Shown: positions 3,001 through 6,000 of the stretch, in pieces
How positions within the stretch are numbered: the first letter of the stretch is position 1
How the letters are laid out: each line of letters opens with the position of its first letter
NCBI RefSeq assembly: GCF_045037415.1
Contig: NZ_CP173438.1
Source of the DNA: Escherichia coli
Lineage (GTDB): Bacteria > Pseudomonadota > Gammaproteobacteria > Enterobacterales > Enterobacteriaceae
DNA: 64,000 bases
Reading direction: 5' to 3' (one strand)
Made by a program: the position numbers

Positions 3001-6000
3001 CCAATGCCACCTTCAAATGGTGGACCAAATCACGGCAGTCATGGTCGCTATTAATTAGTAATTCATAGCGGGAAAGTACATACTCTCCCGCTATCCACGG
3101 CGCTTAAACTGCCCTGCATCAATGCCATGTTGCTTCATTTTCCGCCACAGCGTAGTGCGGCCGATTCCAAGTAAAGCCGACATTTCCTGAATGCGACCGC
3201 CTGTGACTTGGGCTGCGTTAATAATTGCCTCTTTTTCAACTTCCGCAAATGACAGACTGGTGGAAAGGCGGGTGGCGCTGACATCATCTGTCGCCTGCTC
3301 GGTAAACAGATGTTCCGGCAAATCACTGACGCGAATGCGCCCATTATCACTACTCAGAGCAAGATTCTCGATGACGCTGTAAAGTTCAAAATCGTTGCCA
3401 GGCCATGCACAGGAAACCAGGCGAGCGAGGGCATCGTCATCAATTTTCAGCCGCGTAGAGAAGCGTTTTTCAAGGCTGCGTAATTTGTTATTCACCAGCG
3501 CCGGAATGCTGCCACGCCGCATACGCAGTGGCGGGATGGTAATTTCAAATGCATGCAGCGCGTAATACAGCTGGCGACTAAAACGATTTTGTTCCACCAG
3601 CATTGCGAGGTCCGCGGTCGTTGTGGCAATCACTTTGACATCAATGGGTATTAAACGCCGCGCATCCAGTCGCGTGATAACACCCTGCTTGATAACCTGA
3701 AGCAAAGCAGACTGTAACTCCACCGCCAGATATTCAATCTTTTCAAGAAACAGCGTGCCGCCGTGCGCCAGTTCCAGCCGACTCAGACGGCCATTTTCAT
3801 TATCCGTGCGATCGCCACCAATAAATTCTTCCGCCAGCGCCGCATCACCATATAACTCACAATTGACGGCGATATAAGGCCCCGCTGCACGCTCGCTTTC
3901 ATTATGAATTGCCTGACTTAGCAGTGCCTTGCCCACGCCCTCTTCTCCACAAAGCAGGACAGGAAAGCTACTGCGCGCCGCCTGGCGACCAAAATGAATC
4001 AAGCGGCGGGTTTGCGGATCGTCCTGTGGCATATGAGCGAAGGTATGGCTGACTTTTCCTAATTGACTGGTCATTAACTGCCGCATCTGTTCCACAGGAT
4101 GGAGCAATAAAATAAAGCTGGTTCCCTGCGTTTCTATTATCGGTTTAAGGGTTATCACCGCATCAATAAACTGATGCTGACTTTCAAAGGTTGCTTCTAC
4201 GTGTTTGAGCGGATGTGCCTGTTTTATTGCTTGTTGCAATACGGCGGGTAACGTTAAGAGTTCAGTGATTGCCCTTCCCTGACTTGCCGTCGCGTCAAGG
4301 CGCAAGACTCGCGCCGCCTGGGCGTTGATAAATTGCAAATTACCCTGCTCGTCCCAGCTAATCACGCCATCATCCATACTTTCTAACAGGGCATTAAGTT
4401 GATTTAAATGACGGTTAGTTTCAGCGAGCAAACTGTCCGTCAGCAGTAAATTTCCGACCTCGCGTGCGATTGCCAACGTCAACGGCAAATCAGCTGCGGT
4501 AGTTTGCTCAACCGGACACGCCAGCGCTATTGTTCCCGTCAATCGGCCCTTGCTGTCAAACAACGGCGTTGCGCAAAAGGCCCAGTTCCAGAGTGCCTGT
4601 TTGAAATGTTGATCGGCCATCGTTTTCACGGCCTGACCAGAGATAGCCGCTAACGATAGCGCACAAGTACCAATAATTCCCTCGGCGCAATACGTGCCGT
4701 CATTGAATCCCAGTACACTTAGCTGCTGCAAGGTTTGCGGATCGCCATTACGGCTGAGAATGCAGGCGGTTTCATCGAGGATAAGCAACGCACACTCTCG
4801 CGGTGCCATATATTCCCAGGCATCTTCCAGCGCAGCCTGCCCGAGCGTCAGCATCGCTTTCTTACGCCGATAAATAGAAGCAAATGTCACGCCCTGGGCC
4901 TGGTGTGGTACGTTCCATGTCTCCCGTTTCATCAGCTTATTGCATCTCTCCCAGGAGGTTGCAATTAAGGGAGATATGCCCCGACCATCGTTGTTAAAAG
5001 CGCCACTCATATCCCGCATCCCTTATGACAAAAGGTGTTCCGGCTCGCAATTTTAAGTATTAATACACGTAAAAGTTTCAATATGGAACACTCATTAAAG
5101 CATATGTTTCACTATGAAACATAATTTGGGCTAATTTTCTTTTCCCTTGCCTGATGCACAATGGATTCATCGGCAGTCAGTGGTCGCCGTGTCGTTGAAC
5201 ATCATCCATGCCCTACCGTAATTGCTGGAGCAAAATAATGAAAAAATTGATCAATGATGTGCAAGACGTACTGGACGAACAACTGGCAGGACTAGCGAAA
5301 GCGCATCCATCGCTGACACTGCATCAGGATCCGGTGTATGTCACCCGAGCTGATGCCCCCGTTGCAGGAAAAGTCGCCCTGCTGTCGGGTGGCGGCAGCG
5401 GACACGAGCCGATGCATTGTGGTTATATCGGTCAGGGGATGCTTTCGGGGGCCTGTCCGGGCGAAATTTTCACCTCACCGACGCCCGATAAAATCTTTGA
5501 ATGCGCCATGCAAATTGATGGCGGCGAAGGTGTACTGTTGATTATCAAAAATTACACCGGCGATATTCTTAACTTCGAAACAGCAACCGAGTTACTGCAC
5601 GATAGCGGCGTAAAAGTGACCACTGTGGTCATTGATGACGACGTTGCAGTAAAAGACAGTCTTTATACCGCCGGGCGACGCGGCGTTGCCAACACCGTAT
5701 TAATTGAAAAACTCGTAGGTGCAGCGGCGGAGCGTGGCGACTCACTGGACGCCTGTGCGGAACTGGGGCGTAAGTTGAATAATCAAGGCCACTCAATAGG
5801 TATCGCTCTCGGTGCCTGTACCGTTCCTGCCGCGGGCAAACCTTCTTTTACCCTGGCGGATAATGAGATGGAGTTTGGCGTCGGCATTCATGGTGAGCCA
5901 GGTATTGACCGCCGCCCCTTCTCTTCCCTTGATCAAACCGTCGATGAAATGTTCGACACCCTGCTGGAAAATGGCTCATACCATCGCACTTTGCGTTTAT

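Follow-up and report, generated by a model that had tools for sequence, protein, structure and literature searches.

Two paired 15-bp dyads in the dhaR-dhaK spacer of Escherichia coli as the probable operator of the regulator DhaR

The DNA analysed here is a stretch of 64,000 nucleotides of Escherichia coli (RefSeq assembly GCF_045037415.1, contig NZ_CP173438.1), referred to throughout as the window, which carries the regulator gene dhaR and the divergently transcribed operon that it regulates, dhaKLM. The RefSeq annotation of an identical locus places dhaR on the minus strand at 3091-5010 and, together with the open reading frames (ORFs), places dhaK (5238-6308), dhaL (6319-6951) and dhaM (6962-8380) on the plus strand, the operon as a whole occupying 5238-8380. 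The divergent genes are separated by a spacer of 227 bp (5011-5237). Several complete E. coli genomes are 100% identical to the window over 4700-5500, a stretch that 5,383 of 5,426 complete E. coli genomes contain. Compared with K-12 MG1655, the spacer shows a single base change (5091, C in the window and T in MG1655), and the K-12 RefSeq record gives no regulatory features in the spacer. In this paper, we describe two inverted repeats (dyads) of this spacer which, on comparative sequence evidence, very probably constitute the DhaR operator, that is, the upstream activating sites of the dhaKLM promoter. The base change at 5091 lies outside the cores of both.

DhaR is composed of GAF, PAS and AAA+ domains (Sigma54_activat and AAA_lid_14) and a C-terminal HTH_8 domain, as assigned by Pfam. 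The solved structures cover residues 1-318, the sensing domain, only and were determined without DNA. The protein has been placed in the TyrR family (PMC8743547). The GAFTGA motif that contacts sigma-54 was not found in DhaR or in 8 orthologues, and one account describes DhaR as driving a sigma-70 promoter and as having no sigma-54 contact motif (PMC10084136). Two further accounts, which like the first cite Bächler et al. 2005, report that DhaL carrying adenosine diphosphate (DhaL-ADP) acts as coactivator of DhaR and DhaK as its corepressor, both by binding to the sensing domain (PMC5890353), and that dihydroxyacetone induces dhaKLM as well as dhaR (PMC6643234).

The dyad proximal to dhaK (site 1; 5103-5123, centre 5113) reads TATGTTTCA-cta-TGAAACATA and is a perfect inverted repeat, with 9-nt arms at 5103-5111 and 5115-5123 and a 3-nt spacer. 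The first-pass annotation of this DNA had recorded the palindrome at 5104-5122; it is real, and each arm extends one base further. The core of site 1, GTTTCACTATGAAAC (5106-5120), is an exact match to GTTYC-N5-GRAAC. The dyad distal to dhaK and proximal to dhaR (site 2; 5075-5089, centre 5082) is GTTTCAATATGGAAC, or GTTTCA-ATA-TGGAAC; aligned with the palindrome, it proves to be the same dyad with TGGAAC in place of TGAAAC, a single mismatch. Here the annotation had given a looser, related element, gtttca-N5-ggaac; its spacing was off by one, the gap being N4, and the element is actually a full second dyad. Both elements lie between the divergent genes as had been stated, within 5011-5237. The repeat finder pairs site 1 with site 2 at 75% over 16 nt, and the distance from centre to centre is 31 bp. 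On the K-12 record NC_000913.3 the centres fall at 1250963 (site 1) and 1250994 (site 2).

The window contains 8 perfect inverted repeats whose arms reach at least 9 nt and whose spacers span 0-6 nt; Markov-1 simulations of the 64-kb window gave 1.8 +/- 1.3, from which about 0.006 perfect repeats of the size of site 1 are expected in a spacer of 227 bp. Across the whole 64 kb the degenerate core GTTYC-N5-GRAAC is matched at two positions only (0.17 expected), and both are in the dhaR-dhaK spacer.

For comparison, orthologous dha loci were gathered by a DhaR genome scan plus contig look-ups from ten other Enterobacterales genomes, which included other Escherichia, Citrobacter, Pantoea, Klebsiella, Rahnella, Shimwellia, Serratia, a record deposited as Salmonella enterica and a metagenomic contig; Martelella (L010) was left out as the region upstream of dhaK falls outside the locus sequence. 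In the Escherichia species and Citrobacter (DhaR 71-73% identical) the spacer can be aligned, and both dyads are conserved blocks between flanks that have diverged, site 2 being kept as GTTCCGTTATGGAAC. In the other genera the spacer is unalignable, yet the core recurs upstream of dhaK as pairs 31-32 bp apart. Every promoter of dhaK or dhaD/gldA that was examined has a dyad pair upstream of it, in Pantoea, Klebsiella, Rahnella, Shimwellia, Serratia and two further genomes; where dhaD/gldA, which encodes glycerol dehydrogenase, separates dhaK and dhaR, a second pair precedes that gene. Shimwellia has a third pair (L039, 7787-7832), made up of one exact dyad and one dyad with 1 mismatch, 31 bp apart, adjoining genes of 1,3-propanediol metabolism (a dhaT-like iron alcohol dehydrogenase and a dehydratase reactivase), which suggests that the reductive branch of the dha regulon is under an operator of the same type. 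In Serratia, whose DhaR is 54% identical, dhaR is convergent with the operon, and a pair is present upstream of gldA-dhaKLM and none upstream of dhaR; the motif therefore follows the regulated promoters.

The consensus drawn from 39 sites is the symmetric GTTyCAT-W-ATGrAAC, in which the inner CAT/ATG is conserved though it was outside the search pattern. The spacer of the dyad is strictly 5, with 25 exact matches against 0 for spacers of 2-4 or 6-8, and all 29 exact matches in about 160 kb (the window plus the dha loci) fall within dha control regions. In most sites the two halves differ, GTTTC being paired with GGAAC, and full symmetry is seen at no site other than site 1. The perfect palindrome with its 9-nt arms is therefore a peculiarity of E. 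coli and not the conserved feature, and the first-pass annotation needs correcting here: the conserved unit is the 15-bp core.

Orthologues of DhaR that share 54-72% identity overall all keep the same recognition helix, IGRTTLWRK. Through the peptide WRKMKQHG, the DhaR genome scan also drew in 19 distant loci of sigma-54 activators. Three of these activators (L013, L017 and L020) are deltaproteobacterial and otherwise unrelated to DhaR; they combine a helix of the form R[TS]TLWRKMKQHG with a true GAFTGA, and just upstream of their own -24/-12-type promoters they have TGTTyC-N5-GrAACA dyads (L017, 3011-3106; L020, 3910-4004; L013, 4733-4747). Over the 19 loci this pattern has 5 exact matches where about 0.4 are expected. 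That activators sharing the helix also carry the dyad is independent evidence that a helix of the R[TS]TLWRKMKQHG type reads it, and suggests that the DhaR operator is a site of the enhancer type put to new use at a sigma-70 promoter. The dyads of L017 and L020 are about 80 bp apart; in the three loci the genes downstream of the dyads start with MxxKKILVP. For E. coli itself a sigma-54 enhancer was rejected because DhaR is without GAFTGA, as was a sigma-54 promoter of the -24/-12 type (TGGCAC-N5-TTGC): the lone match in the spacer at up to 3 mismatches, TGGAACACTCATTAAA, overlaps site 2, and window-wide counts of the pattern are below chance.

In every promoter compared, a hexamer of the form nAnAAT starts 44-45 bp after the centre of the proximal dyad, its A2, A4, A5 and T6 being invariant in 10 sequences from 8 genera. 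In E. coli the offset is 44 and the hexamer is CACAAT (5157-5162, plus strand), the putative -10 hexamer of the dhaK promoter. The corresponding -35 region holds no good -35 hexamer, only the T-rich tract AATTTTCTTTT (5133-5143, plus strand), which is invariant in Escherichia and Citrobacter and has its equivalent in a T-run at equal offset in the other genera. This fits an activator-dependent sigma-70 promoter. Transcription of dhaK would then start near 5169, about 7 nt past the hexamer and at 1250907 of NC_000913.3, and the dyads would be centred near -56 and -87. A laxer promoter scan gave weak candidates only, the best plus-strand pairing being TTTTCT-16-CACAAT, and the promoter positions are for this reason based on conservation.

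The putative dhaK leader (5169-5237) was compared with its equivalents in L033, L034, L036, L039 and L009. A leader block at 5169-5201, ATCGGCAG..GGTCGCCGTG.CGTTGAACA, is conserved in Escherichia and Citrobacter. Leaders of the Klebsiella type have two GC-rich hairpins, with stems that differ between genera, separated by ACCCTAC. A significant fold was obtained for Pantoea and Rahnella alone (z about -2.2); that of the E. coli dhaK leader was not significant (z = +1.1).

A third conserved element, CTCGCAATTTT (5044-5054, with TCGCA at 5045-5049), lies 31 bp upstream of the core of site 2. Of 16 dhaK and dhaD/gldA promoters from 8 genera, 14 have the sequence TCkCA at a fixed 30-31 nt from the distal dyad, the exceptions being Rahnella, with TCCCA, and Serratia, with TCGCT shifted by one base. 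Its fixed offset of about 31 nt puts the element in phase with the two dyads. Its minus-strand reading, TTGCGA, is what Shimada et al. 2014 predicted as the -35 hexamer of dhaR, within the promoter TTGCGA-17-CATAAG (PMC3946193). As far as we have checked, the element appears not to have been described before. Three identities were considered for it and rejected: a DhaR half-site, as it departs from the dyad at the nearly invariant G and T positions; the -35 hexamer of a divergent promoter, as no consistent -10 hexamer accompanies it outside Escherichia; and a CRP site, for which there is only a chance-level match at 5034-5049.

The prediction of a DhaR operator made in the first-pass annotation is thus well supported at the level of comparative sequence analysis. 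The dyads occupy the control region beside dhaR and keep a fixed spacing, and four independent lines of comparison agree: the dyads are conserved in Escherichia and Citrobacter, recur as pairs 31-32 bp apart in the other genomes that have DhaR, mark the target promoter in Serratia, and track the recognition helix. A literature search that included the exact operator sequences and high-throughput DhaR binding data returned no paper giving the sites, the 2005 paper of Bächler et al. being outside the texts searched.

We propose that a DhaR dimer binds each 15-bp dyad, GTTyCAT-W-ATGrAAC, by means of its two C-terminal Fis-type helix-turn-helix domains. As the spacing of 31 bp, which is observed, corresponds to three helical turns, two dimers, one on each site, would sit on the same face of the helix. 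From about -56, DhaR may then recruit or stimulate the sigma-70 polymerase, the form of polymerase named in the literature, at a promoter without a usable -35 hexamer. Its activity is set by protein partners and not by the DNA: according to the literature, DhaL-ADP, which is formed while dihydroxyacetone is phosphorylated, binds the sensing domain and activates, and binding of DhaK represses.

The position of the operator may also bear on dhaR itself. E. coli and Citrobacter are without dhaD/gldA and its dyad pair, which separate dhaK and dhaR in the Klebsiella-type loci (L033, L036, L038, L039 and L009); in E. coli one operator therefore faces both dhaK and dhaR. As E. coli has lost dhaD from between the two genes, its operator lies 72-103 bp ahead of the start codon of dhaR. 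The abstract of the 2005 description by Bächler and colleagues reportedly mentions autorepression of dhaR, and the paper is said to discuss inverted repeats in the spacer. Such autorepression would probably come about through overlap of the operator with the region near dhaR.

Several points weigh against the assignment of the dyads to DhaR or against the simple form of it. The orthologous promoters share ancestry, so that the counts of conserved sites are not independent. A simple sigma-70 scan of the spacer finds no promoter, and the transcription starts of dhaK and dhaR are placed from conservation only. A different dhaK promoter, TTGAAC-16-CGTAAT at 5195-5222, was predicted by Shimada et al. 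2014; their pairing is unconserved and lies inside the peak of the sigma-70 holoenzyme that they found in the dhaR-dhaK spacer by SELEX (systematic evolution of ligands by exponential enrichment; PMC3946193), a peak that in itself counts in favour of the assignment. Two other regulators have been mapped to the spacer: the summit of AppY in chromatin immunoprecipitation sequencing (ChIP-seq), at U00096.3 1250957, corresponds to about 5119 in the window, inside site 1 (PMC10057817), and a genomic-SELEX peak of NtrC corresponds, by an approximate conversion, to about 5143 (PMC8743547). Lastly, a simple model of two dimers leaves the conserved third element unexplained.

The last point could be met by a more elaborate arrangement, which we put forward tentatively and think rather unlikely to hold as a whole. 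The dha operator would be a phase-locked platform of three parts, TCGCA and the two dyads at steps of 31 bp, at a fixed distance of 44-45 bp from the -10 hexamer. An oligomer of the AAA+ protein DhaR, for example three dimers, would wrap about 90 bp of DNA around it and activate the sigma-70 polymerase from a fixed position near -56. With the loss of dhaD in E. coli, the outer element, TTGCGA on the other strand, would have been turned into the -35 hexamer of dhaR.

That the palindrome is bound mainly by AppY, NtrC or CRP, the first two of which have the ChIP-seq and genomic-SELEX signals just mentioned, is very unlikely. The AppY motif, ATGSCWGM, is unlike the dyad, and the AppY enrichment was a modest 4.9-fold under overproduction, in data with a resolution of tens of bp (PMC10057817); the NtrC SELEX data are likewise coarse. 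Neither dyad matches the CRP pattern TGTGA-N6-TCACA at up to 3 mismatches, and the lone match in the spacer is the chance-level one at 5034-5049. The NtrC consensus is TGCACC-N5-GGTGCA, which the dyads do not resemble either. None of the three proteins accounts for the pairing of dyads ahead of dha genes across eight genera.

An equally small likelihood attaches to the dyads being operators of GlpR, the DeoR-family repressor of glycerol-3-phosphate metabolism, by which dha expression would be tied to the metabolism of glycerol. The two pathways are metabolically adjacent, and the GlpR operator at glpD in K-12, ATATGTTCGATAACGAACATTT, has the outer ATGTT...AACAT in common with the dha dyads. 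The GlpR site, TGTTCG-N4-CGAACA, however, has an even core of 16 bp, as opposed to the odd 17-bp core of the dha form, TGTTyC-N5-GrAACA, whose spacer is the same in all 25 exact sites. None of 8 dha control regions has a GlpR-like match at up to 3 mismatches, whereas the glpD control, TGTTCG-ATAA-CGAACA, matches exactly. Moreover, the dyad accompanies the DhaR-type helix into deltaproteobacterial loci that are unrelated to glycerol.

Less credible still is a hairpin or cruciform in place of a protein site, for example a stem-loop in the dhaR leader transcript. Arms of 9 bp with a loop of 3 nt could fold, but the variable arm position shows no covariation in 35 sites (23 non-complementary, T/G or C/A, against 12 complementary), sites other than site 1 have at most 8 of 9 positions complementary, different genes have the element upstream of them in one orientation or the other, and there is no Rfam match. 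A chance occurrence in AT-rich intergenic DNA, where short AT-rich inverted repeats are common, can practically be discounted, since about 0.006 such repeats are expected per 227 bp, the two matches of the core in 64 kb are both in the spacer, and conservation across genera has already refuted it.

Other features of the window near dhaR were recorded in passing. On the minus strand at 42-1814, separated by about 1.3 kb from the 3' end of dhaR, there is an ORF for a reverse transcriptase of 590 amino acids that matches the defence models of the retron type I-C RT-Toprim kind (Ec67-like; PADLOC E = 5e-214; Pfam RVT_1). An Rfam scan of 1-3100 found no family, no further search being made for a retron non-coding RNA. 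The spacer downstream of dhaR contains a perfect match to the CRP core consensus (0 mismatches), TGTGATAACAATCACA at 2836-2851, which overlaps the start of an ORF of 76 amino acids (2824-3054) that has no Pfam match. The IS5 seen in strain SK1144 is apparently absent from the window.

The present finding concerns a regulatory system that is already known, the DhaR/dhaKLM system of E. coli K-12, which was characterised in 2005 (Bächler et al., EMBO J 24:283; PMID 15616579); the locus is the same and nothing in it is different in kind. The contributions of this analysis are the consensus across genera, the pairing at 31-32 bp, the fixed offset of 44-45 bp to the -10 hexamer and the third element, TCGCA. 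The understanding of the DhaR system is unchanged, and the consensus, the three-turn spacing and the third element are modest additions to it, which allow one to test how a relative of the enhancer-binding proteins activates a sigma-70 promoter. The DhaR operator forms the DNA end of a textbook 'trigger enzyme' circuit, where kinase subunits signal the availability of the substrate straight to a transcription factor. Narrowing the operator down to two 15-bp dyads of fixed geometry is useful for biosensors of dihydroxyacetone or glycerol and for engineering of the 1,3-propanediol regulon of Klebsiella.

Among known regulators, TyrR is like DhaR an activator-like AAA+ protein with a C-terminal helix-turn-helix and without the sigma-54 contact, which works at sigma-70 promoters from paired dyad boxes. 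TyrR is controlled by amino acids and DhaR by protein partners. The consensus of the TyrR box is TGTAAA-N6-TTTACA, and a TyrR box was rejected as the identity of the dyads on direct reading of the sequence, TGTTTC-N5-GAAACA differing in both half-site and spacing. The sigma-54 enhancer-binding proteins of the NtrC type likewise read tandem dyads with an HTH_8 domain; their sites, however, are about 80 bp apart and at least 100 bp upstream, whereas the DhaR dyads are 31 bp apart and close to the -10 hexamer. The operators of GlpR are akin to the dha dyads in their outer bases (ATGTT...AACAT) and in the metabolism that they serve, and differ from them by one bp in spacing and in the inner bases.

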